Shown: piece after piece, positions 25,948 to 42,730 of the stretch | Layout of the letters: each line of letters begins with the position of its first letter | How positions within the stretch are numbered: position 1 is the stretch's first letter | Assembly (NCBI GenBank): GCA_020632995.1 | Contig: JACKEN010000003.1 | Location: 372,677 to 436,676, forward strand | DNA length: 64,000 nt | DNA from: Deltaproteobacteria bacterium | GTDB taxonomy: Bacteria; Myxococcota; Kuafuiibacteriia; Kuafuiibacteriales; Kuafuiibacteriaceae | Direction: 5' to 3' | Position numbers and translations under genes: made by a program | Notes under the pieces: generated by a model | The model's input: only the letters and a program-made list of their open reading frames with translations | What the model was told of the DNA's origin: nothing | Databases searched by the model: none

Positions 25948-28900
25948 CTACTCGGTGACCTCGAAGCGCACGCCGGGCGCCTCGGCCCGGATGTCCGGCT
26001 GGTAGTAGACGTACATCTCGGACGCCGGGGCCTCCACGCTCGCGCTGAGCCCGGGGACCAGCCCGAAGGACAGATCCCGCGGCTGCCCCGCGGTGAGGCC
26101 CATCAGGTAGAAGGTCACGTACTCGGCGTCCACCTCATAGCGGGCGGCCCGGCCGTCGGCGACGATCGCGTCGAGGTCGGCGGTCCGCGGCGAGAAGCCG
26201 GGGGCCCGGCCCACCCGCACCATCACCTGATCCCGCACCCCCTGCCCGGTGAAGGTGGCCTGCACATGGGCGGTCACCGGCGCGCCCACCGCAATCTGGG
26301 TTGCGTCGTAGGAGACGCCCAGCGCCAGCTCGGGGCTGGTCTGCGGGGCGGCGGGGGGCAGGTAGGCCTCGCGCGTCAGCTTGTAGGTCACCTCGCCGGT
26401 GCCCTGCATGCTGAGGGCGATGGTGTTGGCGCCGGGCTGCACGTAGTCGGTGATGTCGAAGCTGCGGAACAGGTCGCCGTTGGCCGGGGTCACCGAGATC
26501 GGCTCGAGGGCCAGGCCGTTGACGGTGATGGTGAAGGTGCCGTTCGCGTCGGAGCCCTGGGGCGAGGCCGCGGCGAGCAGGGCCCGGAGCGCGTTCATGG
26601 TGGCCTGGGTGTTGTACCAGCTGCCCACCGCGTCCTTGTTGCTCACCAGGTAGCGCATCGCGCCGGCCGCGTCGTCGGGGAACGCGCGGGCCTGGAAGAG
26701 ACCGTAGGCCACGAGGCCGGTGGTCTCGATCGCCGCGACGTCGCCCGCCGCGCCGGTCCACGAGGGCGCCTCGGTGGGCCACAGCACCTTGCCCTCGCCC
26801 GCGTCGGTCTTCAGGCCGTCGAGCCGGGACAGGAGGGTGGAGGTGGCGGCGGCGCTGGGCGCGACCTTGGCGAGCGCGTTCATGGAGAGCGCGTTGGCGT
26901 ACAGGTCGGCGCCGTCCGGCAGGTTGGCCTGCAACCAGGTGCCGCCGCGGGTGACCGCCTCGGGGGCCCAGCCGGTGTGGGCCAGGGCCCAGGTGATGAA
27001 CGCGGTGGTCCGGATGTCGCTCGTGCCGAGCACCTCGTTGCCGGCGTGGAGCGCGTCGCCCGAAGCGAAGTGCCCGTCGCCCTGCTGCTGGGCGATGAGC
27101 CACTGCAGGGTGCGGTCACGCACGTCGGTGTCGATCTCGATGAGCGACTCGAGGTCCTTCAGGTGCCACAGCATGATGGCGGACAGGATCCGGTTGCCGG
27201 GATCCGCGTCGCCCCACCAGTTGAAGCCGCCGGTCGGGCTCTCGAAGGTGAGCAGGCGCTGGTAGCCGCGCTGGACGAGGGGGAGGACCTCCTCGCGCAG
27301 CTCCTCCGTCATCTGGCCGGTGGTGACCATGTACTCGGCCACCAGGGTGTTGGGCCACGCGCTCGAGGTGGTCTGCTCGAAGCAGCCGTTCGGCTCCTGG
27401 AGCATGCCCTCGAGGCCCTGGACCGCCTCGGCCGCGAAGCCGGGGGTGAGGCTCACCGAGACGAAGGTGCCGCCCTCGAGGGCATCCACCGGGACCTCGA
27501 TGGTCTGGATGACGTCGCCGCCCAGCTTGTCGGAGACGCTCTCGAGGTCGAGGGTGCCGTTCGGCACCACCGCCACCGTGCGCACCAGGGCGTCTGCAAT
27601 GCTCCCTGCGTTCCCCTGGAGGGTGAGGGACTGGTCGCCCGCCGCGTCCACTCGGATGCGGAAGCGGGCGGCGCGGACCTCGCTCGGCTCGAGGTGCACG
27701 GTCTGCTCGGCCGTGCCCAGCACCGTCATCCACGACGCGGGGGTGACCGCCACCCGGACGTCCTGCGCGGTGTCGAGGTAGTTGTAGACCACCGCCGGGA
27801 CCTCGATCTCGTCCCCCACCGTGAGGCGGGTGGGGAGGGTCACGTCGACGAAGAAGTCCTGGAAGGTCTTCACCCCGAGGCGCGCCGAGCCCAGCCGGCC
27901 GTCCTGGGTGTGGGCGTCGGCCGAGAGGCGCCAGGTGGTGATCGAGTCGGCGAGGGGGAAGCGCACCGAGGCGGTGCCGCTGCCGTCGGTGACCAGCCAC
28001 GGGTTGGCGAAGACGGTCTCACGGAAGTCCGATCGCACCTTCGCCGCGCCGCCGGAGGCGTTGCTGTCGTCCGTGGTGGGGTCGAGCGGGGCCTGGCCGC
28101 CCGCCTCGGGTGCGGGCGGGCCCGCGCCGTTGGCGAGGTCGACGCCGTCGCGCTCACCCCAGAGCAGCCACTGGTACCAGCGCTCGAGGGTCACGTCGTC
28201 CGCGGTGCCGGGGCGCTCGTCGGGGCCGCTGGAGGTCACCTTCACGAAGTACTGGTCCCTGTCGTTCTCGACCTGGTAGCGGTGGCCGAAGGGGTCCACC
28301 AGCCGCAGGAGAGCTTGCTCGATTCGGCTCGGGAGCTCGTTCTGCTCCGGGTTCGTGTTCAGCACCGCGAGGAGCGCGGTGTCGACGTCGGCCACCACCG
28401 CCTTCTCGACCAGCGCGGCCACCCGCGGGCGCTCGGAGACCACCGAGTTGTAGTCCACGCCGGTCGCGGCGGGGGCGCCGCTGGCCGCGAAGAGCAGGGC
28501 GGCGAGGGCGTCGGCGTCGGCGCCGGGGGCCTGGGCCAGCAGGTCCTTGGGGCCCTGGCCGAGCGCGCTGGTGGCGGCGGGGAGGACCCGCGGATCCAGG
28601 CTGAAGAAGGTCCTGAGGTCATCACCCGGCTCGCCGCCGAGCGCGAAGACCGCCTCGTCCACCGCGGTGAGGCCCACCGCGGCCACCTTGGGCTGACCCT
28701 GGGGATCGAGCGCGCGGATCGTCACCACCGCCTCCTCGCCCGGGCCGTAGGTGTCGGCGGAGGCCGTCAGCTCGACCTGCAGGCGGTCATCCGCCTGGGC
28801 GTAGAGGCGCCGCTGGCCGCTGAGCACCTCGCCCGCCGTGGCCATCGCGAAGGCGTCGATGAGCAGGCCACCCTGCATGTTCGTGCCGAGGGTGAAGCGC

Positions 28901-30681
28901 AGGCTGCCGCGGCCGCCCTCGAGGCTCACCGCCTGGGTGAGGCGGCCCTCACCGCCCTGGCGCACCCCGACGAAGGCGCGGGACACGCCGCTCGGGGCCT
29001 GCACCTGGACCACGACCTCCTGGCCGGGCCCGTAGAACGCGTGATCGGTGCGGACCAGGAGCCCTGGCCCAGCGGTGAGGCTCACCGCGCGGGAGGCGGT
29101 GCGGTCCGCGCCGTCGGTGGCCTGGAAGTTCAGCTCGAGGCTGCCGGAGGGGGTGACCTCGAAGGACGCGACGCCGCGGGCGTCGGTCTGCAGGCCGGCC
29201 TGCGTGAGGTCGCCCGAGACGTCGACGTTGGCCACCACCGGGCGGCCGAGCGGATCGGCAACGAGCACGTAGACCCGGTTCGCGAGGCCCGCGACCATGG
29301 GGCTGACCTCGGGGAGGACGCGCACCACCAGCGGGTCCTTCACCATGCGCAGGTTGGCCTGCGCGATCTCGGCCTGCCCGGCCGCGTCGGTGACGGTGGC
29401 CTCGACCGTGAGGGTGACACCCTCGGCCACCGCGCTGCCGCCCGCCTGGGCGGGGATCTGGAGGGTGTAGCTCGCGCTGCCCTCGGCGTCGGTGGTGGCG
29501 TTCACCGCCGCGACGACCTGGTCGCCGACCTTGGCCTGGACCTGGACCGTGGCCTGGGTCACCGGCATCCCGAACAGGTAGTGGGCCCGCACCGTGCCCT
29601 GGATGGTCTGGCCGGGCTGCAGGTAGGCCTGCGCGCTCTCCACCGCCACCTTGAGCTTGGGGAGGTTGTAGCGGAGCACCGGGATGGTGAGCTCCTCACG
29701 GACGTCGCCGGCGGAGGCGCGGATCTTCCAGTCGCCCTCGTTCACCCGGGTGTCGGTGGGGATGTCCACCGCGGCGACGCCGAAGGCGTCGGTCTGCACG
29801 GTGCGCTTGAAGACCTTGTTGCCCTTGGCGTCCATCGCCTCGACCGCCACCTCGCGGTCGGCGAGGGGCAGGCGCTGATCCTGGGTGAGGCCGATCAGCC
29901 GGGCGTGCAGGGTCTGACCGGGCTGGTAGATGGTCTTGTCGAGGGCGACCCGGAGGCGCTCGGCCCGGGCGTGGGCGAGGCGGGTGTTGGTCCAGGCCTC
30001 GACGTCGCCGCTCCGGACGGTGATCCGGACGTCGCCGGACTCGACGCCCTCGGGCAGGGCGACCTGCAGGAGGAGCTCACCCTTGTCGTCGGTGGCGCCG
30101 GTGGCGAGCTCGCGCTGGCCGGCCTCCTCGAGCAGGCTGGCTTGCACCTGTGCCCCGGCGACCGGCGCGCCCGCCTCGTCGCGGGTCAGGACCCACAGCT
30201 CGGCGCGCTCCGCGAGCTCGGTCGCGCCCCGGACCTGGACCTCCATGGTGCCGAGCGCGGTGTAGAGGCTGCGGCTGCCAAACAAGGTGCCGGAGGGCGT
30301 GGCGACCCTCCACCGTACCACGAGGCCGGCGGTGTCGGCCCGCGCGAGTCCGGCAGGAAGGCCTGCGAGACGCACCTCGTGCCGCTGGACCTGAGCGTCC
30401 TGCAGGATCTGGGTGGTGGCGACCGAGAGGATCCGATCCTCGGCCTCGGTCACGTCGACGAGCTCGGCCCGGAGCGCGGCCTCGAGCATGCCCGATCCCC
30501 GCTTCTCGACCTGGAAGGCGACCTGGGCCACCGCGCCGTCGGTGGACGCGCGGATCTGACCCTCGTCCACCGCGGCGGACGCGTTGGCGAGCACCTCGGG
30601 CGGCGGATTGGCGGAGTTGCCGCCGGTGCATGAGAGCGCGGCGAGGGGGAGCAGGAGGGTGGGCCAGGTTCTTGATCGCAT
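25948..30681 (-). CDS. Bacterial alpha-2-macroglobulin family lipoprotein with intact thioester
   Basis: Lipobox LAALSCTGG; long series of MG-like domains; thioester motif GCFEQT (CxEQ); size about 1577 aa typical of YfhM/ECAM-type A2M. Confidence 0.85.
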   Translation of the reverse strand: MRSRTWPTLLLPLAALSCTGGNSANPPPEVLANASAAVDEGQIRASTDGAVAQVAFQVEKRGSGMLEAALRAELVDVTEAEDRILSVATTQILQDAQVQRHEVRLAGLPAGLARADTAGLVVRWRVATPSGTLFGSRSLYTALGTMEVQVRGATELAERAELWVLTRDEAGAPVAGAQVQASLLEEAGQRELATGATDDKGELLLQVALPEGVESGDVRITVRSGDVEAWTNTRLAHARAERLRVALDKTIYQPGQTLHARLIGLTQDQRLPLADREVAVEAMDAKGNKVFKRTVQTDAFGVAAVDIPTDTRVNEGDWKIRASAGDVREELTIPVLRYNLPKLKVAVESAQAYLQPGQTIQGTVRAHYLFGMPVTQATVQVQAKVGDQVVAAVNATTDAEGSASYTLQIPAQAGGSAVAEGVTLTVEATVTDAAGQAEIAQANLRMVKDPLVVRVLPEVSPMVAGLANRVYVLVADPLGRPVVANVDVSGDLTQAGLQTDARGVASFEVTPSGSLELNFQATDGADRTASRAVSLTAGPGLLVRTDHAFYGPGQEVVVQVQAPSGVSRAFVGVRQGGEGRLTQAVSLEGGRGSLRFTLGTNMQGGLLIDAFAMATAGEVLSGQRRLYAQADDRLQVELTASADTYGPGEEAVVTIRALDPQGQPKVAAVGLTAVDEAVFALGGEPGDDLRTFFSLDPRVLPAATSALGQGPKDLLAQAPGADADALAALLFAASGAPAATGVDYNSVVSERPRVAALVEKAVVADVDTALLAVLNTNPEQNELPSRIEQALLRLVDPFGHRYQVENDRDQYFVKVTSSGPDERPGTADDVTLERWYQWLLWGERDGVDLANGAGPPAPEAGGQAPLDPTTDDSNASGGAAKVRSDFRETVFANPWLVTDGSGTASVRFPLADSITTWRLSADAHTQDGRLGSARLGVKTFQDFFVDVTLPTRLTVGDEIEVPAVVYNYLDTAQDVRVAVTPASWMTVLGTAEQTVHLEPSEVRAARFRIRVDAAGDQSLTLQGNAGSIADALVRTVAVVPNGTLDLESVSDKLGGDVIQTIEVPVDALEGGTFVSVSLTPGFAAEAVQGLEGMLQEPNGCFEQTTSSAWPNTLVAEYMVTTGQMTEELREEVLPLVQRGYQRLLTFESPTGGFNWWGDADPGNRILSAIMLWHLKDLESLIEIDTDVRDRTLQWLIAQQQGDGHFASGDALHAGNEVLGTSDIRTTAFITWALAHTGWAPEAVTRGGTWLQANLPDGADLYANALSMNALAKVAPSAAATSTLLSRLDGLKTDAGEGKVLWPTEAPSWTGAAGDVAAIETTGLVAYGLFQARAFPDDAAGAMRYLVSNKDAVGSWYNTQATMNALRALLAAASPQGSDANGTFTITVNGLALEPISVTPANGDLFRSFDITDYVQPGANTIALSMQGTGEVTYKLTREAYLPPAAPQTSPELALGVSYDATQIAVGAPVTAHVQATFTGQGVRDQVMVRVGRAPGFSPRTADLDAIVADGRAARYEVDAEYVTFYLMGLTAGQPRDLSFGLVPGLSASVEAPASEMYVYYQPDIRAEAPGVRFEVTE

Positions 30682-30902
30682 GTTGTAGGACCTCCGGGGC
30701 GTGACCAAAAGCACGCCATGTACCGCCTCGGGATGCCTGGGAATTCCCGTGGTTTTGGGCTCCGCCGGTATCAGAAGTGCGGGGACGCGGCGGGGGCGCC
30801 CTCAGGAATCCGCGGCCCCCCGAACCCCGACACACCGCGTCATTCTCATGGGTTACGTGAGCTTTTCTAACAAAAAGGCCTTGCCTTCGGGACGCGAGGA
30901 CC

Positions 30903-30930
30903 TTAGAGCATTCAATTAATCAATTGAATC
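30903..30930. promoter_or_regulatory. AT-rich palindrome ATTCAATTAATCAATTGAAT immediately upstream of the ArsR-rhodanese gene, candidate operator
   Basis: Near-perfect inverted repeat in an otherwise 70 % GC genome, about 10 bp before the start codon of the ArsR-family regulator. Confidence 0.4.
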
Positions 30931-30934
30931 TTCT

Positions 30935-31651
30935 ATGACGCCCGTGCCCGCCCAGCTCCGACAGAGCGCCCTGGATCACTACGAAGAGATGGCTCGGCTC
31001 GGGCAGGCCTTCGGCAGCCCGGTCCGGCTCCGATTGCTGGATCTCTTGCGGCAGGCGCCGCGCAGCGTGGACGCGCTGAGTGAAGAGGCGGGCCTGCCGG
31101 TGGCGAACGTGAGCCAGCACCTGCGTCAGCTCCGCGCCGCTCACGTGGTGAGCTCCGAGCGCCAAGGCCAGCGGGTGATCTACCGACTCTCCGGACCGAT
31201 GGTGGCGTCGTTCTTCCTCGCGTTCCGAACGTTCGGCGAGATGCTCCTTCCGGAGCTGGATCGGTTGAAGAAAGACATCCAATCCGCCGAGCGCGGTCTC
31301 GCGCCCGACGAGTTCCGCCAGTTGCTCGATCGCGGCAAGGCCCTCGTGGTGGATGTGCGTCCGAACGAGGAGTACCATCACGCTCACTTCGACGACGCAG
31401 TCTCCATCCCGCTAGAGGAGCTGCCCAGCCGACTGCACGAGCTACCGAGGAGCAAGGTGGTGGTGCCCACGTGTCGAGGCCCTTACTGCCCTCTGGCCAT
31501 CCAGGCCGTGAGCCTGCTCCGTGAGGCCGGCTTCGAGGCCGCCCACTTCGATCTCGATGAATTTAGCGAGGGCATCGGCGTAGAGACGCCGATGGTCCCG
31601 CGGTCGGCCCCGACCAAGAAGGCCGCGGCTCGAAAGAAGAGGAGTTCATGA
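30935..31651 (+). CDS. ArsR/SmtB-family HTH transcriptional regulator fused to a C-terminal rhodanese domain
   Basis: Winged-helix region RLRLLDLLRQAPRSVDALSEEAGLPVANVSQHLRQLRAAHVV; C-terminal rhodanese fold with Cys loop VVVPTCRGPYC; stop overlaps next ATG (ATGA). Confidence 0.8.
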   Translation: MTPVPAQLRQSALDHYEEMARLGQAFGSPVRLRLLDLLRQAPRSVDALSEEAGLPVANVSQHLRQLRAAHVVSSERQGQRVIYRLSGPMVASFFLAFRTFGEMLLPELDRLKKDIQSAERGLAPDEFRQLLDRGKALVVDVRPNEEYHHAHFDDAVSIPLEELPSRLHELPRSKVVVPTCRGPYCPLAIQAVSLLREAGFEAAHFDLDEFSEGIGVETPMVPRSAPTKKAAARKKRSS

Positions 31652-32589
31652 ACATGCGTTGGATGATTCTTGGTGCTGCGCTCCTGTGGAGCGCCACCGC
31701 GCAAGCTGCTGACGAGTACTTCGTCTCCGTGGACGAGGCGAAGGCCCAGGTGGGCAAGGCCCGTTTCATCTGGGCCGACAAGGAGAGCGACTTCGAGAAG
31801 GAGCACATCCCGGGCTCCGGCATCGCCTACGCCCACGATCTGTCGATCCTGAGCGACGTGAAGGCCTGCAAGGGCCTGCCGCTCTGCGAGCCGGCCGCGG
31901 CCAAGCTGATCGGCCAGGAGCTCGGCATCGACAACGACACCGACGTCATCGTCTACGACGGCGGCGCGGGGGCAAACGCGAGCGGGATCTGGTTCCTGCT
32001 CAAGCTGTACGGCCACGACAAGGTCAAGATCCTGGATGGCGGCCTCGCCACCTGGAAGGCCCACGGCGGCAAGGTGGAGTCGGGGCACGCGGCCAAGGTG
32101 GCGGCCAAGTCGTTCACCCCCAAGGTGCAGTGGGACATGATCGCCAACGTCGACGAGGTCAAGAAGGCGACCGGCGACCAGGGGCACTACCTCCTGGTGG
32201 ACGCGCGCCACAACCTCGACGAGTACACCGGCCGCACCCTGCAGGCGGCCATGGCGGCGCCGGGCAAGGAGGCCACCGTGGCGCGCGGCGGCTACATCCC
32301 CACCGCGGTCTTCTCGCCGTGGAGCAAGTACGCTGGCAACAAGGGCGGCAAGGCCGACCAGCCCACCTTGAAGGACCAGAAGGAGCTGCAGAAGCAGCTC
32401 AAGAAGCTGTCGAAGAACGGCTACGCGCCGGACAAGACCGTCATCAGCTACTGCCACGTGGGCCTCGGCCGCGGCTCGTTCCAGTACCTCGCCCTCAAGA
32501 AGGCCGGGCACAAGAACGTGAAGCTCTACATCGGTTCCTGGAACGAGTGGGGCAACGACCCCTCCCTGCCCCTGGGCACCCAGCCCTGA
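31648..32589 (+). CDS. Secreted tandem-rhodanese thiosulfate/3-mercaptopyruvate sulfurtransferase
   Basis: Signal peptide; two rhodanese domains; catalytic loop YCHVGLGRG. Confidence 0.8.
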   Translation: MNMRWMILGAALLWSATAQAADEYFVSVDEAKAQVGKARFIWADKESDFEKEHIPGSGIAYAHDLSILSDVKACKGLPLCEPAAAKLIGQELGIDNDTDVIVYDGGAGANASGIWFLLKLYGHDKVKILDGGLATWKAHGGKVESGHAAKVAAKSFTPKVQWDMIANVDEVKKATGDQGHYLLVDARHNLDEYTGRTLQAAMAAPGKEATVARGGYIPTAVFSPWSKYAGNKGGKADQPTLKDQKELQKQLKKLSKNGYAPDKTVISYCHVGLGRGSFQYLALKKAGHKNVKLYIGSWNEWGNDPSLPLGTQP

Positions 32590-32605
32590 TCTGAAGGAGT
32601 ACGGC

Positions 32606-33730
32606 ATGACGTCGCTTCTCACCGGTCTTCTCACTGGCATGGGGTTCGGCATCCTCCTCTACAAGGTGGGCGCCACCCGGTACTCGCGGATCATGGGGAT
32701 GCTGACCCTCCGCGATACCAAGATCATGAAGTTCGCTTTCACCACCATCGCGGTGGCCTCCATGTTGTATGGGTTGGCGAGCCTCGCGGGCATCGCCAGT
32801 GACTGGAACCTCGAGACGCGCGTCATGCCGTTCATGGGCGGCGCCCACATCCTGGGCGGCATCCTGTTCGGCGCGTCGCTCGGCGTGACCGGGCTCTGCC
32901 CGGGCACCTGCGCCGCCAAGGCGGGCGGGCGCGCGGGCGAGAAGCGCTTCGTGCTCCCCGCCGCCCTCATCGGGCTCGTCCTCGGCGTGGTCATGTACGC
33001 CTGGCTGAAGGAGCCGCTGGTGGACGCGGGCATCGTGGCGCGGCCGCGGCAACTCACCTTGCACGGCTACCTCGGCCTCCCCTACGGCGTGGTGGCGGTC
33101 GTCTTCGGCGCGGTCATCATGACCATCGTCCTCGTCGTGGATCGCTTCACCCCCGAGAAGCGCTACGAGCCGGTGAAGGAGCGCCACTCGATCGTCGACT
33201 GGGTGCGGGGCGAGTGGAGCTTCCTCGCCTCCGGCACCATCGCCGGCCTCTTGATCGTGGGCGCCACCGCGCAGGGCGGGTACCTCGGCTTCTCCGGCTC
33301 CCTCCTCGCGCTGGTGGGCGCGGTGTCCAACGTCATCGGGATCAAGATGGCGGCGGTGCCGGTGGTGAACGACAGCATCCTCTGGCACTCCGGCCTGATC
33401 GTGGGGGCGCTGGTGGGTGGCTTCCTCTCCAGCCTGGTGTCCACGTACTCGAAGGGCTACGTCGGGGTCCCGAAGAAGAAGACCCTCGATCCGAAGGCCA
33501 TCGCCATCACCATGTCCGGCACCGCGATCATGGCGCTGGGCGCGATGGTGGGCGGCGGGTGCACGACCGGGGCCTTCCTCTCCGGCTGGCCGACCCTCTC
33601 GATCGGGAGCTTCGCCATGGCGATCACGTTCTTCGCCACCTCGATGGCGGTCTCGAACCTCCGCCTCCTGGTCGCGCACACCTACGACCTCAACGCCGCC
33701 CAGAAGATCGGCGAGCAGGTCTATGACTGA
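32606..33730 (+). CDS. YeeE/YedE-family sulfur-compound (thiosulfate) transporter
   Basis: Duplicated multi-TM architecture with conserved Cys-containing loops (GLCPGTCAA, GGGCTTGAF). Confidence 0.8.
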   Translation: MTSLLTGLLTGMGFGILLYKVGATRYSRIMGMLTLRDTKIMKFAFTTIAVASMLYGLASLAGIASDWNLETRVMPFMGGAHILGGILFGASLGVTGLCPGTCAAKAGGRAGEKRFVLPAALIGLVLGVVMYAWLKEPLVDAGIVARPRQLTLHGYLGLPYGVVAVVFGAVIMTIVLVVDRFTPEKRYEPVKERHSIVDWVRGEWSFLASGTIAGLLIVGATAQGGYLGFSGSLLALVGAVSNVIGIKMAAVPVVNDSILWHSGLIVGALVGGFLSSLVSTYSKGYVGVPKKKTLDPKAIAITMSGTAIMALGAMVGGGCTTGAFLSGWPTLSIGSFAMAITFFATSMAVSNLRLLVAHTYDLNAAQKIGEQVYD

Positions 33731-33734
33731 GGCA

Positions 33735-33865
33735 TGGAGCTGATGATGAGTCGTCAACTGCGGGTCGCCGCAATCATCGCCGTCGTGGTCCTCGCGGTGT
33801 CCTGGATCATGCTCCGACAGCACAACGCACAGGTCGCCGCTCCGGCGGCGGAGGCGCAGCAATGA
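33735..33865 (+). CDS. Small (43 aa) single-TM protein, translationally coupled to downstream rhodanese
   Basis: ATG with hydrophobic core VAAIIAVVVLAVSWIML; stop overlaps next ATG (ATGA). Confidence 0.3.
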
Positions 33866-34326
33866 AGAAGTTCGAGCCCTTCATCTACATCGTCCTCTTC
33901 GTGGTGTTCGGGGGCCTCGTGCTCTCCGAGGGCGCGAAGGCCGCGGCGCTCGATCGGTCCATCGCGCTGACCCCGAAGGAGCTGTACCGCAAGATCGCGA
34001 AGCGGGAAGGTGCCTTGCAGATCGTCGACGTGCGCGAGGACGTCGAGGAGAACTACGAGGACACCCACATCCCCGGCGCCATCCCCTTCCCCAACTGCGA
34101 CATGAAGGAGACGCCGGAGGGTGCGCGCGACCAGGTGGAGCCGTCGGTGCCCACCATCATCGTGTCCGGCGATGGCGATCAGGAGCTGTTCAACAAGTGC
34201 GCGGCGTACTTCACCTCCGCGCGTAACCTGGAGGGTGGGCTCGAGGCCTGGGACGACGAGAACCTCCCCGAGGATAGCGGTGAGTACCAGCCCCCCAAGG
34301 TGGGCGCGGGCGGCGGATGTCTGTGA
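33862..34326 (+). CDS. Membrane-anchored single-domain rhodanese-like protein (active-site Cys not evident)
   Basis: N-terminal TM; rhodanese fold pattern LQIVDVRE...THIPGAIPFP...PTIIVSGDGD. Confidence 0.6.
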   Translation: MKKFEPFIYIVLFVVFGGLVLSEGAKAAALDRSIALTPKELYRKIAKREGALQIVDVREDVEENYEDTHIPGAIPFPNCDMKETPEGARDQVEPSVPTIIVSGDGDQELFNKCAAYFTSARNLEGGLEAWDDENLPEDSGEYQPPKVGAGGGCL

Positions 34327-34336
34327 GGCGAGTGCG

Positions 34337-37225
34337 ATGACCATCTCGAGACGCGACGTACTGAAGAACATGGCCGCGGTGAGCGCGGGGGCCGCCGCGG
34401 TCTCCGCCCTGGACGGGCGCGCCCTGGCCAAGGGGCTCCCCAAGCCGGAGCGGCGGGACGATCCCCGCCATCACCCGCCGGCCAAGGAGACGTCGGTCGA
34501 GGCCATGTATCGGGCCGAGTTCGCCGAGACCTTCGGCGACGCGGGCGAGAAGGGCTTCGCGTACCACTGCGTGAACTGCCAGGGGAACTGCGCCTGGCAG
34601 GTCTGGAGCAAGGACGGCAAGGTCACCCGCGAGAACCAGAGCGCGTCCTATCCGCAGATCGCGGACGACATCCCGGACGCGAACCCGCGCGGCTGCAACA
34701 AGGGCGTGCAGCACAGCCAGATCATGTACTCGCAGGACCGCCTGCTCTACCCGATGAAGCGGGTGGGCGAGCGCGGCGAGGGCAAGTGGGCCCGGATCAG
34801 CTGGGACGAGGCCATCTCCACGGTGGCCGAGAAGCTCTACGACACGATGCTCCGGGTGGGCCCGGAGGGGAACTACATCCACGTCGGCGCGGGGATCCTC
34901 ACCGAGGCCAGGGCCGCGTCGGTGAAGCGCCTCGGGGCGCTGTTGGGCGCGGTGCGTCCGTACATCGCCTCCTATGTCGGTGACATGTTCCCTGGCGTCT
35001 CGGTGGTGTACGGCGAGGGCAACATCGGTTGCACCTTCGACTTCATCTACAAGTCGAACGTCGCGGTGTTCTGGGGCTGCAACCCCAACACCTCGCGCAT
35101 CCCGGACGCCCACTACCTGTGGGAGGGCAAGTACAACGGCTGCAAGGTCGTGGTGATCACCCCAGAGTTCAACTCCACCGCGATCCACGCCGACCTGTGG
35201 GTGCCGGTGAAGCCGGGCGGCGACGGCCACCTGGCCATGGCCATCATGAACCGGATCGTGAAGCGGCGGCTCCACAACCCGAAGTTCCTGGCCACCTACA
35301 CCGACCTGCCGCTCCTGGTCCGCGAGGACAACGGCAAGCTCCTCACCCTCCACGACGTGGACGCCGAGGCCCTCGACTCGAAGCTAGTGGAGCTGTTCGG
35401 TGAGGACGAGGCGAAGCACCACGAGGTCTTCCTCGCCTGGGATCAGCGCACCAAGAAGGCGGTGCCGCTGCCCGGCTGCGAGGGGAGCGCGGTGCCGACG
35501 CTGCGCCTGAAGGACAACGCCTGGAACATCTCCCCCGCCCTGAAGGGCACCTACAAGGTGAAGCTCTCGGACGGGAGCATGGTCACCGTGAAGCCGGTGT
35601 ACGAGCGCTTCGAGCAGGAGCTGGCCGCGTTCGCGCCCGAGAAGGTGCAGGCGATCACCGGCGTCCACCCGAAGGTGGTGGACGAGCTGGCGGTCGACCT
35701 CGCCAAGTCGAAGACCGCGGTCATCACCCTCGGCTTCGCGGTGGGCAAGCACTTCAACGGCATGCTCTCGCAGCGCGCGATCTCGACCCTGGCCGCGCTG
35801 TCCGGGAAGCTCGGCCCCAACGGCGGCATCAACTCCGAGAACGAGTGGAACATCACCGGCCTCGGCGGCCTGAGCAGCTTCGATGGGCGCTTCGTGCACC
35901 GCTTCGCGTCCGGCTTCACCTCCGAGTTCATGCTCGGCGATGGCCTGAAGACCTACGACAAGGGCTTCGCGGACGAGGACGTGAGGCGCGCCACCGGGAT
36001 GTCCAAGTCGGACTACAAGTCCCGGGTGGAGCAGATGCTCACCAAGGGGAAGAACGACGACGGCTACAAGGACGGCGGCAAGCCGTACTGGACCACGGTC
36101 GAGACCTTCTTGATGTTCGCGGACTCCCGGTTCCGTCGGAACAAGGGTGAGTACAAGGAGGCCTTCCTCGAGAAGGCCAAGTTCATCGCCTACGGCGACA
36201 TCCGCATGAGCGACTTCGCGCAGTACGCGGACGTGCTCCTGCCCTGCAAGTCGCACTACGAGGTCTGGGACATCCGGACCAACCCCGGCTACCACCGCTT
36301 CGCGAACATCGCGTACCCGCCGCCCCACCTCGAGAACGTGGGTGAGGCGAAGAGCGAGTGGGAGATCTCGACCCTCATCGTGGAGAAGATGGAGGCCCTG
36401 GCCAAGGCGCGCTACGCCAAGACCAAGGACGAGAAGGACATCAAGATCCCGGACGAGACCCACACCCAGGAGGGCTTCCGGCCCATGGGTGAGCTCGTCA
36501 AGGAGTTCACCCAGGACGGGAAGGTGCGCACCGACCGCGAGGCGGTGGAGTACGCGCTCGAGCACGTCGACCAGTTCAAGCCGAACACCATCCAGACGGT
36601 GTACGACCGCGGCGGGTTCCTGCAGCTCAACGACAAGTCCGGCAAGTCGAGTCCGCTCTATGCGGACCGGCCCTACAACACGTTCGAGAGCCAGCTGTAC
36701 TTGTTCCAGCGCTTCGACACCGTCAGCGGGCGGCTCACGTTCTACGTGGACCACCCACTGTGGGTCGAGATGGGGGCGGCGATCGTCACCGCGCGGGAGC
36801 CCATCCGGCCGAAGAAGTACCCGCTGGCCCTAATGACCCCGCACGCGCGGTGGTCGATCCACTCGACGTACAAGACCTCGCCGACCCTGCTGCGTCTGCA
36901 GCGCGGCAAGCCGTACGTCATGATCAACCCCGAGGTGGCGGCGTCCCGCGGCATCGCGGACGGCGACGACGTCCGGATGTTCAACGACCTGGGCGACACC
37001 GTGTTGATGGCGAAGCTGGTGCCCGGCGTGCCGAAGAACGCGGTGGTGATGGAGCACGGCTGGGAGCCCTTCATGTTCCGCGGCCGCAAGGGGCAGAACG
37101 TCCTCGTGGGCGACATGCTCAACTTGCTTGAGCTCAGCGACGGGTGGGGACACCTGAAGTTCGGCACCAACTGGGACGGGAACCAGCACGCCTACGACGC
37201 CACCGTCGAGCTGGCGAAGGTCTGA
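34337..37225 (+). CDS. Tat-exported molybdopterin (Mo-bisPGD) oxidoreductase catalytic alpha subunit, type II (NarG/EbdA/SerA/DdhA-like)
   Basis: Twin-arginine signal MTISRRDVLKNMAAVSAGAAA; FS0 motif AYHCVNCQGNCAW...PRGCNKG aligns with NarG HGVNCTGSCSW...PRGCPRG (His-x3-Cys-x3-Cys); RLLYPMKR matches NarG RLKYPM; about 962 aa. Confidence 0.85.
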   Translation: MTISRRDVLKNMAAVSAGAAAVSALDGRALAKGLPKPERRDDPRHHPPAKETSVEAMYRAEFAETFGDAGEKGFAYHCVNCQGNCAWQVWSKDGKVTRENQSASYPQIADDIPDANPRGCNKGVQHSQIMYSQDRLLYPMKRVGERGEGKWARISWDEAISTVAEKLYDTMLRVGPEGNYIHVGAGILTEARAASVKRLGALLGAVRPYIASYVGDMFPGVSVVYGEGNIGCTFDFIYKSNVAVFWGCNPNTSRIPDAHYLWEGKYNGCKVVVITPEFNSTAIHADLWVPVKPGGDGHLAMAIMNRIVKRRLHNPKFLATYTDLPLLVREDNGKLLTLHDVDAEALDSKLVELFGEDEAKHHEVFLAWDQRTKKAVPLPGCEGSAVPTLRLKDNAWNISPALKGTYKVKLSDGSMVTVKPVYERFEQELAAFAPEKVQAITGVHPKVVDELAVDLAKSKTAVITLGFAVGKHFNGMLSQRAISTLAALSGKLGPNGGINSENEWNITGLGGLSSFDGRFVHRFASGFTSEFMLGDGLKTYDKGFADEDVRRATGMSKSDYKSRVEQMLTKGKNDDGYKDGGKPYWTTVETFLMFADSRFRRNKGEYKEAFLEKAKFIAYGDIRMSDFAQYADVLLPCKSHYEVWDIRTNPGYHRFANIAYPPPHLENVGEAKSEWEISTLIVEKMEALAKARYAKTKDEKDIKIPDETHTQEGFRPMGELVKEFTQDGKVRTDREAVEYALEHVDQFKPNTIQTVYDRGGFLQLNDKSGKSSPLYADRPYNTFESQLYLFQRFDTVSGRLTFYVDHPLWVEMGAAIVTAREPIRPKKYPLALMTPHARWSIHSTYKTSPTLLRLQRGKPYVMINPEVAASRGIADGDDVRMFNDLGDTVLMAKLVPGVPKNAVVMEHGWEPFMFRGRKGQNVLVGDMLNLLELSDGWGHLKFGTNWDGNQHAYDATVELAKV

Positions 37226-37238
37226 GGAGAAGCACTCG

Positions 37239-38288
37239 ATGTCGAAGCGTCAGCTCGCCATGGTCATGGACCTCAACAAGTGCATCGGCTGCCAGACGTG
37301 CACGGTGTCCTGCAAGACGCAGTGGACCAACCGCAACGGCCGGGAGTACATGTACTGGAACAACGTCGAGACGAAGCCCGGCGATGGCTACCCCAAGAAG
37401 TGGGAAGACATGGGCGGCGGGTTCGACGAGCGAGGTCAGCTGAGGGACGGCCACGTGCCCTCACGCTCCTCGGAGTACGGCACGCCCTGGGACTACAACC
37501 TGAACGAGCTCGACTCCGGGAAGCTCCTGGAGGCGCAGCAGAAGCTCCAGGTGGGGCCGAACTGGGACGAGGATCAGGGCAAGGGCGACTTCCCGAACTC
37601 GTACTACTTCTACCTCCCCCGCATCTGTAACCACTGCAGCAACCCGGGTTGCCTGGCCGCCTGCCCCCGCGGGGCGATCTTCAAGCGGGACCAGGACGGC
37701 ATCGTGCTCGTGGATCACGATCGCTGCGAGGGCCTGCGGTATTGCATTGCAGGTTGTCCTTACAAGAAGATCTACTTCAACCCGAAGCTCTTCAAGAGCG
37801 AGAAGTGCATCTTCTGCTTCCCTCGCATCGAGAAAGGGCTCCCGCCCGCGTGCGCCCACCAGTGCGTGGGGCGCATCCGCTTCGTGGGCTACCTCGACGA
37901 CGAGGAGAGCCAGGTCTACAAGCTGGTGCACAAGTACAAGGTCGCGCTGCCGCTCCACGCCGAGTACGGCACCGTGCCCAACGTCTTCTACGTGCCGCCG
38001 CTCCCCGGGCCCCCGAAGTACGACGCGTTCGGCAAGCCCGTGGCGGGCAGCGAGCGCATCCCGCTCGAGTACCTCGAGAGCCTGTTCGGGCCCGACACCA
38101 AGGCCTCCCTCGCGGTGCTCGAGAAGGAGATGGCGAAGCGCAAGGCCGGCAAGACGTCGGAGCTGATGGACATCCTCATCGCCTACAAGCACTCCGACAT
38201 GTTCCGCATCGACGCCCCGAAGCCCACCGCCAGCGTGGGCACCGATCTCATCCAGATCGGCAAGAAGGCAGAGAGGAGCCCGGCGTGA
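37239..38288 (+). CDS. NarH-like iron-sulfur beta subunit of type II molybdoenzyme
   Basis: Block-by-block similarity to NarH: LNKCIGCQTCTVSCK, YWNNVETKPGDGYP, GPNWDEDQG, YLPRICNHCSNPGCLAACP, GIVLVDHDRCEGLRYCIAGCPYKKIYFN, SEKCIFCFPRIE, CVGRIRFVG, VALPLHAEYGTVPNVFYVPPLP. Confidence 0.9.
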   Translation: MSKRQLAMVMDLNKCIGCQTCTVSCKTQWTNRNGREYMYWNNVETKPGDGYPKKWEDMGGGFDERGQLRDGHVPSRSSEYGTPWDYNLNELDSGKLLEAQQKLQVGPNWDEDQGKGDFPNSYYFYLPRICNHCSNPGCLAACPRGAIFKRDQDGIVLVDHDRCEGLRYCIAGCPYKKIYFNPKLFKSEKCIFCFPRIEKGLPPACAHQCVGRIRFVGYLDDEESQVYKLVHKYKVALPLHAEYGTVPNVFYVPPLPGPPKYDAFGKPVAGSERIPLEYLESLFGPDTKASLAVLEKEMAKRKAGKTSELMDILIAYKHSDMFRIDAPKPTASVGTDLIQIGKKAERSPA

Positions 38289-39487
38289 AGGCGCGGCTGA
38301 TGATGGGCGCCGTCCTCGGCGCCGCGATGCTCATGGGCGGGAGCGCCCGGGCCGACGACGCCTACCTTAAGGCGGAGGCGGTGACGGTGACCCGCACCCA
38401 GAAGGTGCCGAAGGATCCGCGGGACGCGGCGTGGGCCAAGGCCCCGGCGGCCCGGGTGATGCTGGGCGCTCAGCGGACGGTGCGCCTCAACGATCGGGAC
38501 GCCAACCCGCACCGGGACGACGCCCAGAAGTTCGCCGAGGTGCAGGCCTACAGCGACGGCAAGACGCTGGCGATGCGGGTCTCGTGGGTCGATCCCACCG
38601 AGGACCGGGCGCTCTACGACGAGACCTCGGTGTTCGGCGACGCGGTGGCGATGGAGATGCCGGCCGCCTTCGGGGCGGAGCACCGCCTGCCCTACGTCGG
38701 CATGGGCGACCCCGACGAGAACGTGGTGGTGTCGATGATCCGCGCCACCACCAGCTACCAGGGCGCGCCGATGTCGCGGCCGCGGACCACGGTGGCGGCG
38801 GGCTTCGGCTCCCTCACCCGGGCCCCGCTGCCGTGGATGGACATGGTCATGTACTACGACCGCAAGCTGCCTGGCTGGCGGGCCACCTTCGTGCGGCCGG
38901 TGACCACCCCCGAGCACGACATCGCGCGCCCCCTGGTGCCGTTCGCGCTCGCGGTTTGGGACGGGGCCGAGAAGCAGCGCGGCGGCAACAAGTCGCTGTC
39001 CCGCTGGAAGGTGCTGCACGACGCCCAGGCCAAGGCGGAGCCCGCGTACCTCGAGAAGCTGGCCTACGGGTACGGCGCGCAGGCCACCGGTGATGCGGCC
39101 AAGGGCAAGGCGCTCGCCACCGCGGTGTGCATCGCCTGCCACCGCTTCGCGGAGTACCAGGTGGCGCCGCCCGAGCTCGCGCCGGAGCTGACCAACGTCG
39201 GCGTCATCACCAACCCGACGTATCTGCGCGACTCCATCAAGGAGCCGAGCCAGATCATCGTGCCGGTGCTGAACCTCAACCGCCACTACTCCAAGTCGAA
39301 GGAGCGGGACCGGTACGGCGCCTACCAGAACGACGACACCTACCAGTGGTTCTCCATCGACGCCGCGGGCAAGCGGGTGTCCCGCATGCCGAGCTTCGCG
39401 GGCTTCAGCCCCGAGCAGATCGCGGATCTGGTGGCGTTCCTGCAGACCCTCGGTACCCAGCCTGCCCCGAAGAAGGAAGGTCAGTGA
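38285..39487 (+). CDS. Gamma subunit: EbdC/SerC-type heme-b domain fused to a C-terminal cytochrome c domain
   Basis: GTG start overlapping beta stop (GTGA); signal peptide; N-terminal about 250 aa of type-II heme-b-subunit size; C-terminal CIACH (CxxCH) with downstream Met-rich cytochrome c-like region. Confidence 0.7.
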   Translation: MKARLMMGAVLGAAMLMGGSARADDAYLKAEAVTVTRTQKVPKDPRDAAWAKAPAARVMLGAQRTVRLNDRDANPHRDDAQKFAEVQAYSDGKTLAMRVSWVDPTEDRALYDETSVFGDAVAMEMPAAFGAEHRLPYVGMGDPDENVVVSMIRATTSYQGAPMSRPRTTVAAGFGSLTRAPLPWMDMVMYYDRKLPGWRATFVRPVTTPEHDIARPLVPFALAVWDGAEKQRGGNKSLSRWKVLHDAQAKAEPAYLEKLAYGYGAQATGDAAKGKALATAVCIACHRFAEYQVAPPELAPELTNVGVITNPTYLRDSIKEPSQIIVPVLNLNRHYSKSKERDRYGAYQNDDTYQWFSIDAAGKRVSRMPSFAGFSPEQIADLVAFLQTLGTQPAPKKEGQ

Positions 39488-39488
39488 C

Positions 39489-39899
39489 ATGAAGCGCAGC
39501 GTGTTGATGCTCGGTGTGTTGAGCGCCGCTCTCTGGGCGGCCCCCGCCTCGGCCCAGGAGAAGGGCGACGACGTGGAGGTGACCTCCGGCTCGGTGACCG
39601 GGCTCTCCTGCGCCCTCGAGGCCCAGAAGACCGGCCACCTGGAGCTGCTGGCCGCGTGCCCGCTCCAGGAGGCGGTGAAGGAGATCGTGATCTTCGACGT
39701 GGCGGAGCGCGCGATCTATCGGCTCCAGGGCGTCACGGTGGCCATGTACGAGCTCGAGATGGCCTACGGCGGCGGCTCCATCGACATGGAGGGCGTCGTC
39801 ACCAAGGTCGACAAGAAGACCGGCGTGGCCACGGTGAAGGTGGCAGAGTACTCCATCACCAAGAAGCCGAAGGCGGGCGGGTTCAAGGGCTGCCTGTGA
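39489..39899 (+). CDS. Small periplasmic protein of unknown function in molybdoenzyme operon
   Basis: Signal peptide MKRSVLMLGVLSAALWAAPASA; 136 aa; stop overlaps next GTG start. Confidence 0.5.
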   Translation: MKRSVLMLGVLSAALWAAPASAQEKGDDVEVTSGSVTGLSCALEAQKTGHLELLAACPLQEAVKEIVIFDVAERAIYRLQGVTVAMYELEMAYGGGSIDMEGVVTKVDKKTGVATVKVAEYSITKKPKAGGFKGCL

Positions 39900-40789
39900 A
39901 GGACCTGATCCAGATCGGCGCCGGGGTGCAGGCGGGCAAGCCCGACCTCCGCTTCGGCACCAGCGCCGCCCCCAACGATCGCGCCGGCTTCGCTCGCGCG
40001 GTGGTGGCGGTGACGTCTGGAAAGGGCGGGGTGGGCAAGTCCACCGTGGCGGTCAACCTGGCGGTGGGCTGCGCGCAACGCGGCTTGCGGGTGGGCCTGT
40101 TGGACGCGGACGTCTACGGGCCCAGCGTGCCCCGCATGCTGTCGCTCCACGGCGAGCGCCTCGAGTGGAGCGACGACGACAAGATGATCCCGGCCGAGAA
40201 CTTCGGGGTCAAGCTCGTGAGCACCGCCCTCACCACCCCCGAGCTCGACACGCCGCTCGCGTGGCGCTCCTCGGTGGCCACCAGCGCGCTGGTGCAGCTC
40301 ATCGAGGACGTGGACTGGGGTGAGCTCGACATCCTCTTCGTCGACATGCCGCCGGGCACCGGCGACGTGCAGATCACCGTGGTCCAGGAGGTGAAGCTCA
40401 CCTACGCGGTGGTGGTCACGACCCCGCAGACGGTGGCCACCGACGACGTGGCGCGGGCGATCCGCATGCTGGCCGACGTGGGTGTGCCCGCCGGCCTGGT
40501 CGAGAACATGAGCTTCTTTCGGGCCCCGGACACCGGGGCCATCTACCATCCCTTTGGCGAGGGCGGCGGTCGAGGCCTGGCGGAGCGCTATCAGCTGCCG
40601 CTGCTGGGCACCCTGGCCCTGGCACCTTCGGTCATGACGCGGGCAGACGAAGGTCTGCCTGCGGTGGCCGGTGGCGCGCCCGAGGACCAGGCGCCGTGGC
40701 AGGCGCTGGTCGATCACCTCCTCAAGCAACCTTCTCTGCTCGAGCGGCTCCCACCGGGGACCGCAACAACCCATCAGGAGAACATATGA
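39896..40789 (+). CDS. apbC: Mrp/NBP35/ApbC-family Fe-S cluster carrier ATPase
   Basis: Walker A SGKGGVGKST; conserved CxxC-type region and Mrp signature blocks; GTG start overlapping upstream stop; stop overlaps cytochrome c ATG. Confidence 0.8.
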   Translation: MKDLIQIGAGVQAGKPDLRFGTSAAPNDRAGFARAVVAVTSGKGGVGKSTVAVNLAVGCAQRGLRVGLLDADVYGPSVPRMLSLHGERLEWSDDDKMIPAENFGVKLVSTALTTPELDTPLAWRSSVATSALVQLIEDVDWGELDILFVDMPPGTGDVQITVVQEVKLTYAVVVTTPQTVATDDVARAIRMLADVGVPAGLVENMSFFRAPDTGAIYHPFGEGGGRGLAERYQLPLLGTLALAPSVMTRADEGLPAVAGGAPEDQAPWQALVDHLLKQPSLLERLPPGTATTHQENI

Positions 40790-41166
40790 AGAAGACCATC
40801 CTTATCGTGCTCGGAGCCCTCTTTGTCGCCAACGCCGCCGTGGCCGCCCCCAAGGCCAAGGCGCCCAAACCCACCAAGGAGCTGCTCGAGAAGGGCAAGG
40901 CCACCTTCACCGTGAACTGCGTGGCCTGCCACGGCGAGAAGGGCGACGGGACGGGCCCCGCGGCGGTGGCGCTCGACCCCAAGCCGCGAAACTTCTCGAC
41001 CGACCAGTTCAAGAACGGGGACAAGCCCGACCAGGTGTTCAAGACGATCTCCGAGGGGCTCGCGGGGACGCCGATGGTGGCGTATGGTCACCTCTCCGAG
41101 GAGGAGCGGTGGGGGCTGGTGTACTACGTCCTCGAGTTCCACAAGAAGGCCGGCAAGAAGAAGTAG
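40786..41166 (+). CDS. Monoheme class I cytochrome c
   Basis: Signal peptide; CVACH heme-binding motif; distal Met (GTPMVAYG). Confidence 0.75.
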   Translation: MKKTILIVLGALFVANAAVAAPKAKAPKPTKELLEKGKATFTVNCVACHGEKGDGTGPAAVALDPKPRNFSTDQFKNGDKPDQVFKTISEGLAGTPMVAYGHLSEEERWGLVYYVLEFHKKAGKKK

Positions 41167-41211
41167 GTCGCGGTCGGGCTCGGAGTCCCGGATGACGGGA
41201 GGGGGCGTGGA

Positions 41212-42711: not shown

Positions 42712-42730
42712 GAATCGGTCGGAGCATAAC

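Follow-up and report, generated by a model that had tools for sequence, protein, structure and literature searches.

An ArsR-type regulator gene fused to a rhodanese domain, with an AT-rich palindrome immediately in front of it and a series of sulfur genes and a molybdoenzyme behind it, raises two questions: whether the palindrome is the operator of the regulator, and to which signal the regulator responds. The gene lies in a 64-kb stretch of Myxococcota DNA (contig JACKEN010000003.1; hereafter the window) with a GC content of 69.6%. The answer that we hold to be probable is that the protein is an autoregulated repressor that leaves an operator of the form ATTCAA-N8-TTGAAT once Cys180 in its rhodanese domain is persulfidated, with Cys185 trapping the sulfur. 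What has been computed here is the domain architecture, the invariance of the Cys pair, the conservation, position and co-variation of the operator, and the sulfur-oxidation neighbourhood of the regulator family.

The family is large. A protein collection yielded 769 relatives of the regulator at E<=1e-5, and matches to the regulator were confirmed in at least 589 species-representative genomes of Myxococcota, Acidobacteriota, Desulfobacterota, Gallionellaceae and other Betaproteobacteria, Paenibacillus/Bacillus (Firmicutes), Chloroflexota, Actinomycetota and others. Eighty genome loci, mostly metagenome-assembled, were kept for comparison, and the 150 nt 5' of the regulator gene were collected from 78 of them. 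The regulator and its proposed sensor loop are encoded in the window as follows.

30935-31651, + strand: ArsR/SmtB winged-helix plus rhodanese fusion regulator of 238 amino acids (Pfam, NCBIfam, AlphaFold model)
31472-31489, + strand: codons of the loop C180-R-G-P-Y-C185, which holds the only cysteines of the protein (invariance, model)

The helix-turn-helix (HTH) of the regulator comprises residues 27-73 (about nt 31013-31153) and matches Pfam HTH_20 with 42.5 bits (cut-off 27) and HTH_5 with 41.5 bits (cut-off 22), and the protein scores 71.3 bits against the NCBIfam ArsR/SmtB model NF033788 (cut-off 55). The rhodanese domain comprises residues 124-202 (about nt 31304-31540; PF00581, 40.7 bits, cut-off 22.2), and the C-terminus is a basic disordered tail. 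In the AlphaFold model (pLDDT 90, pTM 0.80) the ArsR fold is made up of helices 4-26, 29-40, 45-52 and 56-68, wing strands 72-77/80-85 and helix 88-104, and the HTH domain matches CzrA and Mb0332 with target-normalised TM-scores of 0.88-0.90. No solved structure spans both domains, the best query-normalised TM-score being 0.38; by sequence, the nearest solved proteins to the rhodanese half are the metallo-beta-lactamase (MBL)-rhodanese 3tp9 and the CoA-persulfide/NADH persulfide reductases 8a56 and 3nta.

Three elements in front of the gene bear on the first question, and a fourth lies between two of them.

30881-30886, + strand: -35-like box TTGCCT, 23 nt upstream of the operator, assigned from a conserved TTGCCT/TTGACN box
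30904-30909, + strand: weak -10 box TAGAGC, between the TTGCCT box and the operator
30904-30935, no strand: extended imperfect inverted repeat with 14-nt arms of 86% complementarity, which includes the A of the start codon
30910-30929, no strand: predicted operator ATTCAATT-aatc-AATTGAAT, a copy of the family motif ATTCAA-N8-TTGAAT (conservation footprint and co-variation)

The palindrome itself, ATTCAATTAATCAATTGAAT at 30910-30929, has two perfect 8-nt arms around the 4-nt centre AATC and ends 5 nt before the regulator ATG, in an island of 30% GC (30900-30939) compared with 69.6% for the whole window. It is single-copy in the window, where an 8-4-8 pattern with up to three mismatches is expected 0.01 times by chance, and it is also the sole match there to ATTCAA-N8-TTGAAT with up to two mismatches, for which the chance expectation is 0.09. 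Upstream of the regulator gene, ATTCAA-N8-TTGAAT with at most one mismatch was found in 44 of the 78 loci, from many phyla, compared with two of 3646 random 160-nt control windows drawn from the same loci; the match is exact in 21 of the 44. Selection of the sites on 12 positions biases the motif matrix at these positions; symmetric flanks outside the search pattern are also kept, namely a T before it (40/52) and an A after it (39/52), so that the family element with its flanks is the 22-bp TATTCAA-N8-TTGAATA. When all 84 loci (about 1.2 Mb) were counted for the exact motif, 30 matches were obtained in 26 loci, nearly all of them directly 5' of the regulator. Furthermore, in the seven upstream regions of full-operon loci (the window, L081, L082, L084, L002, L015 and L048) no block other than the palindrome is conserved, and the surrounding DNA has diverged.

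The sequence of the palindrome also follows that of the recognition helix. Helices of the type ANxSQHLQxL, including LPVANVSQHLRQL of the window regulator, pair with ATTCAA..TTGAAT, the betaproteobacterial helix KLxSxHLRELR pairs with A(A/T)TCTA(A/G)..(C/T)T(A/G)GA(T/A)T, and the acidobacterial helix LGLANxSQHLKxLRE pairs with TTCAGTA..TACTGAA. Such co-variation is what would be expected of a cognate protein-DNA pair and is hard to explain otherwise. Judged from these sequences, the regulator very likely uses this palindrome as its own operator. Thus the initial annotation, which had placed an ArsR-rhodanese gene (an HTH without Cys and a rhodanese with CRGPYC) directly behind a near-perfect AT-rich palindrome and proposed that palindrome as an autoregulatory operator, is borne out: both domains score above curated cut-offs, the protein has two cysteines only, the 8-nt arms are perfect and lie in the AT-rich island, and family motif, footprint and helix co-variation all back the predicted operator.

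We consider it very improbable that the palindrome has nothing to do with this regulator, whether as an AT-rich repeat arisen by chance, as a binding site for a different factor, or as a hairpin that acts on translation at the RNA level. The short distance to the ATG and a possible fold of the extended repeat in the mRNA, at -8.7 kcal/mol, would suit a hairpin; the outer arms of that repeat show no conservation among orthologues. The chance expectations given above are 0.01-0.09 per window, the same motif stands beside homologous regulators in distant phyla, and its co-variation with the recognition helix ties it to this protein. A scan of 30500-34400 against Rfam returned only a sub-threshold snoRNA match inside yeeE, and no riboswitch or leader RNA. 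A site of the FNR/CRP type was considered and rejected, because the half-sites as read from the sequence are TCAA..TTGA, in the orientation opposite to the TTGA..TCAA of FNR/CRP boxes.

Two sets of observations extend the picture of the operator beyond the window. In a betaproteobacterial branch (Gallionellaceae, Sideroxydans, Sulfuritalea; loci L037, L046, L047, L052, L054, L060, L062, L063, L069, L072 and L080) the palindrome is AATCTAA-N6-TTAGATT or ATTCTAG-N6-CTGGAAT and is located 70-95 nt upstream, facing a divergent gene of the persulfide dioxygenase (PDO) type. Extra exact copies of ATTCAA-N8-TTGAAT away from the regulator promoter were found in L026 (11948-11967), L043 (6403-6422, apparently at the start of a DsrE-like gene), L067 (5077-5096), L070 (6814-6833 and 10847-10866) and L075 (5554-5573), and these second operator copies hint at small local regulons.

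As for the mode of control, a TTGCCT/TTGACN box 18-23 nt 5' of the palindrome is present in six of the seven full-operon upstream regions and is the one other feature shared there. Across the 52 loci with a good site, the median distance from the operator end to the start codon is 15 nt. A TTGAC-type box abuts the operator in nine loci, in which spacer and -10 fall within the operator, and lies 17-23 nt upstream in 15 loci, in which the operator covers -10/+1; the window belongs to the latter class. Both layouts, as they read from the sequence, would be typical of steric repression.

The second question, that of the signal, turns on the loop between C180 and C185. All 119 aligned relatives keep C180, R181, G182 and C185, P183 and Y184 are nearly invariant, and YCRGPYC occurs in all 78 genome-locus proteins. 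The HTH half is free of Cys, both in the window regulator (residues 1-110) and in 99 of the 119 relatives. In the model the loop sits between strand 175-180, which ends at C180, and helix 186-197, and its six residues would give it sulfurtransferase length rather than the seven-residue length of phosphatases and arsenate reductases. Compared with the six-residue consensus C-R-x-G-x-[R/T/S], CRGPYC has the R and the G, with the Gly one position early, and has Cys at position 6. In rhodaneses the residue at position 6 of the loop contacts the persulfide sulfur (C247..T252 in bovine rhodanese, C65..S70 in GlpE), and a Cys at this position would therefore be ideally placed to resolve a C180 persulfide. 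The rhodanese Cys had been proposed as the sensor at the outset, by comparison with BigR, SqrR and CstR; that analogy gains indirect support from the invariant loop and from the sulfur genes around the family, whereas the view of a single sensing Cys gives way to an invariant C-x4-C pair.

A rhodanese domain need not be a sensor at all. It could have a catalytic or trafficking role only and be tethered to a DNA binder that is constitutive or has another input (a metal or a partner protein), with the fusion ensuring co-expression. The loop looks catalytically competent in sequence and model, and many unrelated enzymes and other proteins carry a fused rhodanese domain (PDO, MFS transporters, CoA-disulfide reductases). 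We nevertheless find this quite unlikely. The HTH half has no known ArsR ligand sites and, in 99 of 119 relatives, no Cys, and the BigR and CmtR equivalog models score far below their cut-offs; the fusion is stable, with a fixed domain order in the many phyla and at least 589 species-level genomes; the pTM of the model would indicate a defined packing of both domains; and an autoregulated ArsR protein would not usually lack an input.

The genes around the family point in the same direction as the loop. At least one sulfur gene is located within 6 kb of the regulator in 52 of the 78 loci; among these genes are an MFS transporter fused to rhodanese (22/78), an SQR-like flavoprotein (17-18/78), a PDO-type MBL (17/78, ten of which overlap the regulator stop codon), a cysteine desulfurase (16/78) and DsrE (7/78). 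The counts were made by tblastn with few representatives as queries, so that divergent genes are missed. The SQR neighbour matches Aquifex SQR (3hyv) at E=1e-87, and the PDO-type MBL neighbour matches 3r2u, which we take to be CstB of Staphylococcus aureus, at E=1e-42, as well as 4ysb and human ETHE1. According to reviews, the persulfide sensors CstR, SqrR and BigR have a signature regulon composed of sqr, pdo, rhodanese and transporter genes. The window cluster has rhodaneses and YeeE and neither sqr nor pdo. With invariant cysteines in the loop, and with sqr, persulfide dioxygenase, DsrE, cysteine desulfurase and rhodanese transporters typical among the family neighbours, the reading that appears best is that the regulator senses sulfane sulfur through its rhodanese loop.

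The same Cys pair would also suit a general thiol-oxidation switch, in which C180-x4-C185 forms a plain disulfide under peroxide, disulfide stress or electrophiles and the rhodanese fold merely supplies a Cys of low pKa. Two invariant cysteines five residues apart could join without a sulfur donor, thiol-redox neighbours of the DsbD-thioredoxin type occur in three loci (L003, L028 and L038), and ArsR-family peroxide sensors are known, RexT being one example (PMC8960804). This explanation is unlikely in our estimation. SQR and persulfide dioxygenase, the signature regulon of persulfide-specific sensors, dominate among the neighbours, and the whole C-R-G-P loop is kept and not just the Cys pair, which argues for retained sulfur-transfer chemistry.

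Sulfane-sulfur sensing at this loop could work as follows. The protein would be a homodimeric ArsR-type repressor with its fused rhodanese domain as the sensor. With no signal present, the winged helices would sit on the two-fold 20-bp ATTCAA-N8-TTGAAT, overlapping -10/+1 of the regulator's own promoter, and the bound repressor would silence the regulator together with the packed genes behind it, namely those of the tandem rhodanese, YeeE, the small transmembrane protein, the Cys-tailed protein and the type II dimethyl sulfoxide (DMSO)-reductase-family enzyme, and onward. When sulfane sulfur appears in the cytoplasm, Cys180 would gain a sulfur atom as a persulfide, which is the first half-reaction of a rhodanese. 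The donor might be a low-molecular-weight persulfide, polysulfide, or thiosulfate brought in by YeeE; direct donation by imported thiosulfate is plausible, since rhodaneses classically use it as their substrate. Cys185, at the position that in ordinary rhodaneses is taken by a Thr, Ser or Arg in contact with the persulfide, would trap the persulfide of Cys180 in a di- or trisulfide within the loop. The covalent change, in a domain packed on the C-terminal helices of the ArsR fold, would then lower the affinity for DNA, and the operon would be derepressed.

Several points weigh against this account. It is wholly computational: DNA binding, repression over activation, the inducer, the chemistry of Cys180 and Cys185 and the allosteric coupling are what we infer from the computed features. 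Instead of acting as the resolving thiol, C185 could have a structural role or modulate catalysis. The operator of the window is without the flanking T and A of the family, the control windows share their loci with the test windows, and the start codons of the loci were set heuristically. A sigma-70 consensus scan of 30600-31100 found no promoter, the boxes TTGCCT and TAGAGC make a weak -35/-10 pair assigned from conserved boxes, and the 5 nt between operator and ATG give no room for a Shine-Dalgarno sequence, so that the mRNA would be leaderless or have a short AU-rich leader without one. Among the 78 loci, 26 have no recognised sulfur gene nearby, and some neighbours show no obvious sulfur link (MMPL, fatty-acid hydroxylase, a plain MFS transporter in Firmicutes). 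Finally, there is no sign that YeeE carries thiosulfate: it scores 46.8 bits against the NCBIfam TsuA equivalog, far below the cut-off of 400.

The genes that the repressor would control are arranged behind it as follows.

31648/31654-32589, + strand: secreted tandem-domain rhodanese with a signal peptide (two Pfam Rhodanese domains)
32606-33730, + strand: YeeE/YedE-type (Sulf_transp) membrane transporter, conserved in the operon (PF04143, 87 bits, cut-off 27)
33734/33746-33865, + strand: small protein of 39-43 amino acids with a single transmembrane segment, called in all three operon-orthologous contigs and with no Pfam match
33862-34326, + strand: N-terminally anchored periplasmic rhodanese-homology protein (Pfam Rhodanese PF00581)
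34337-37225 (alpha), 37239-38288 (iron-sulfur beta) and 38285-39487 (EB_dh/cytochrome c gamma), + strand: Tat-exported type II DMSO-reductase-family molybdoenzyme (TIGR/Pfam)
39489-39899, + strand: secreted orphan protein of 136 amino acids, with 28 relatives, none of which has a Pfam domain

Gaps between genes are at most 16 nt from the regulator through at least position 39899, and in full-operon loci the order is strict: regulator, tandem rhodanese, YeeE, small transmembrane protein, Cys-tail rhodanese-like protein, molybdoenzyme alpha, beta and gamma, a 135-aa protein, ParA, cytochrome c and iron-sulfur protein. The first molybdoenzyme is co-linear with the regulator and the sulfur genes in L002, L015, L048, L081, L082 and L084. 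One conserved, tightly packed cluster, probably a single operon, thus holds both the sulfur genes and those of the type II DMSO-reductase-family enzyme. The full operon was found in three of 80 genome loci (L002, L015 and L048) and in the contigs of P0002, P0004 and P0005, all of Myxococcota type; with only three of 80 loci carrying it, the link to this gene set is clade-specific and the regulator-operator pair is general.

The tandem rhodanese probably starts at ATG 31654, because its orthologues begin with MRW..; this codon lies 3 nt past the regulator stop and 9 nt past an AGGAG, and the alternative at 31648 would be an ATGA overlap. Its catalytic loop, C-HVGLG-R, has seven residues and is invariant in six orthologues. 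The nearest solved structures are the Mycobacterium tuberculosis thiosulfate sulfurtransferases 3hwi/3aax, and the loop is one residue longer than their CRIGER. A C-x5-R loop of this length is otherwise typical of rhodaneses of the Cdc25/arsenate-reductase type, and the N-terminal domain has a conserved CKGLPLC pair. For the small transmembrane protein, orthologues start at the Met of 33746, MSRQLR..W..R.HN is conserved, and the gene has an ATGA overlap with the next one; the protein may be an accessory subunit of the transporter. The membrane-anchored rhodanese-homology protein has Ser102 at the position of the catalytic Cys in all four orthologues aligned, and about 22 representatives have Ser, Thr or Ala there (the alignments combine the four orthologues with some 18 representatives of <=50% identity); it ends in a conserved C-terminal tail, ..GAGGGCL-COOH.

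The molybdoenzyme appears to belong to a family that includes ethylbenzene dehydrogenase, selenate reductase, chlorate reductase and dimethyl sulfide dehydrogenase. Its beta subunit scores 516.8 bits against TIGR03478, above the cut-off of 480.7, and its alpha subunit scores 781 bits against TIGR03479, below the cut-off of 984.75; in the gamma subunit an EB_dh haem-b domain is fused to cytochrome c. The orphan protein ends in ..KPKAGGFKGCL-COOH, the KGCL end being present in 28 of 28 relatives, in which C41 and C57 are also invariant. A model of the orphan (pLDDT 80) had no significant fold match in the PDB and only a vague likeness to an OB-fold (E about 0.1); a SoxY- or DsrC-like fold was considered for it and set aside for want of a significant PDB match. 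Tails with a penultimate Cys resemble the swinging arms of DsrC/TusE (..GCV-COOH) and SoxY (..GGCGG-COOH), and by this analogy the GCL tails of the two proteins would suggest covalent sulfur carriers.

The match of alpha and beta subunits to the type II DMSO-reductase family raises the question of whether the regulator senses another chalcogen or oxyanion (selenite/selenide, tellurite, arsenate or sulfite) and controls a selenate- or oxyanion-respiring enzyme, its rhodanese Cys binding selenium or reacting with sulfite. The tandem rhodanese, besides its C-x5-R loop, has a weak match to ExtH, the rhodanese of selenite/tellurite operons (53 bits, cut-off 200), and BigR is named a sulfite sensor by NCBI. 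Such a role seems to us distinctly improbable: the neighbours of the family are sqr, pdo and DsrE genes and not ars, selenium or tellurite genes, and the loop of the regulator has six residues and is not of the C-x5-R type.

A signal peptide, a signal anchor or a Tat signal is present in each of the tandem rhodanese, the two tail proteins and the molybdoenzyme, which are therefore most likely periplasmic. The set therefore looks, from sequence, more like a periplasmic sulfur pathway in which one importer may supply the cytoplasmic sensor. This changes parts of the initial annotation of these genes. The order of regulator and secreted tandem rhodanese stands, with the start of the latter probably at 31654 and not at an ATGA overlap; a YeeE/YedE transporter does follow, with PF04143 above its cut-off; the further membrane rhodanese is anchored and homologous to rhodaneses and has Ser102 in place of the canonical catalytic Cys. 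The sulfur genes do lie in front of two molybdoenzymes and, rather than being a separate module, are part of a single conserved block that includes the first of these enzymes. Of the import-and-processing set, the single importer YeeE is retained, and a simple import and processing unit is not, since most members are predicted to be periplasmic.

A more far-reaching version of the sulfane-sulfur account, possible though doubtful, is that the enzyme domain used as a sensor reads thiosulfate imported by YeeE directly, and that the operon encodes an undescribed periplasmic pathway in which the GGGCL and KGCL carriers present bound sulfur to the molybdoenzyme, as SoxY and DsrC do. We know of no characterised reactive-sulfur sensor in which thiosulfate is read directly.

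Beyond these genes the cluster continues at 39656-46686 with a ParA/Mrp (NUBPL)-type iron-sulfur NTPase, a cytochrome c, a second molybdoenzyme of the FeS-NrfD-Mo type and a NarJ/TorD-like chaperone. The second enzyme consists of an iron-sulfur protein (best match TtrB), NrfD and a molybdenum subunit of 1116 amino acids, in the order B-C-A as in ttrBCA; none of the genes in 39656-46686 reached an NCBIfam equivalog cut-off. On the other side of the regulator, the divergent neighbour (25948-30714, minus strand) encodes a 1588-aa alpha-2-macroglobulin-like protein, and the Myxococcota contig L081, 82% identical, has its orthologue in the same arrangement, with Pfam MG2, A2M and TED_complement. 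The divergent intergenic region contains a terminator-like hairpin, CTCATGGGTTACGTGAG followed by CTTTTCT (30845-30861, + strand), with no + strand gene upstream to terminate and with its stem partly kept in L081; it is not linked to the palindrome.

Among known regulators, the window protein shares the ArsR winged helix with SqrR, BigR, YgaV, HlyU and SoxR-sHdrR, and Foldseek matches it to BigR (3pqj), SqrR (6o8o), YgaV (3cuo) and HlyU (4k2e). Like SqrR, it has an AT-rich two-fold operator built on ATTC/GAAT tetramers; unlike the SqrR box, ATTC-N8-GAAT, the half-sites of the window are spaced as ATTC-N12-GAAT, four base pairs wider, and do not form an sqr box. Neighbouring sqr, pdo and rhodanese genes, at the family level, and a conserved Cys pair as the likely sensor are further likenesses to SqrR and BigR. 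In contrast, the Cys pair of these proteins is in alpha2/alpha5 (C41/C107 in SqrR, C42/C108 in BigR), whereas that of the window regulator is in the fused rhodanese loop, and the window regulator scores 34.2 bits against the NCBIfam BigR equivalog, the cut-off of which is 155. By analogy, we suggest that it works like SqrR, BigR and YgaV without being a member of their group. To our knowledge, no dithiol sensor of the SqrR/BigR type reacts directly with thiosulfate, and a catalytic sensor domain could allow such a reaction. CstR of Staphylococcus aureus (CsoR family) resembles the present case in its proposed mechanism, in which a persulfide-triggered di- or polysulfide between two cysteines frees the DNA, and in the genes that it controls (rhodanese, PDO in the form of CstB, SQR and a YeeE/TauE-like transporter), but it has the four-helix-bundle CsoR fold and no enzyme domain.

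The nearest solved HTH by sequence is that of mycobacterial Mb0332/Rv0324 (2KKO and 3GW2; E=1.3e-11, about 32% identity), which also ranks second or third by fold, in a near-tie after CzrA (TM-score 0.88), and the PDB title of which, 'fragment 1-100', denotes a fragment of a longer protein. Rv0324 is, we presume, a two-domain ArsR-rhodanese protein, although the rhodanese half and its CRGxYC loop could not be confirmed: a sequence search with the 2KKO fragment for the rhodanese half returned only short ArsR proteins or truncated entries. The actinobacterial relative P0123 stops exactly where the rhodanese domain would start. The phenotype reported for Rv0324 is bedaquiline tolerance, with no link to sulfur (PMC9480834). 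If Rv0324 is a member of the family, this would suggest that a regulator connected with bedaquiline tolerance receives a sulfur signal.

In the literature on ArsR-rhodanese fusions and CRGPYC/CRGAYC loops we found no functional, operator or mechanistic study; rhodanese-like domains within ArsR-type regulators are noted only in passing, in a paper on ChrB (PMC3817168). ChrB is likewise a transcription regulator with a C-terminal rhodanese-like domain, but it has another DNA-binding part, chromate as its inducer, which Arg residues are thought to bind, and a loop compared to the MST-type CG(S/T)GVT, with no C-x4-C (PMC3817168). For the family described here, the pairs of recognition helix and operator would be usable for a study of DNA-binding specificity or as orthogonal sulfur-responsive parts. 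As far as we know, reactive-sulfur sensing is currently put down to CstR, SqrR/BigR and FisR, all of which use Cys pairs inside the DNA-binding scaffold. The present locus would thus represent a fourth architecture, in which the putative sensing thiols are placed in a fused catalytic domain, and which is shared by a large family.

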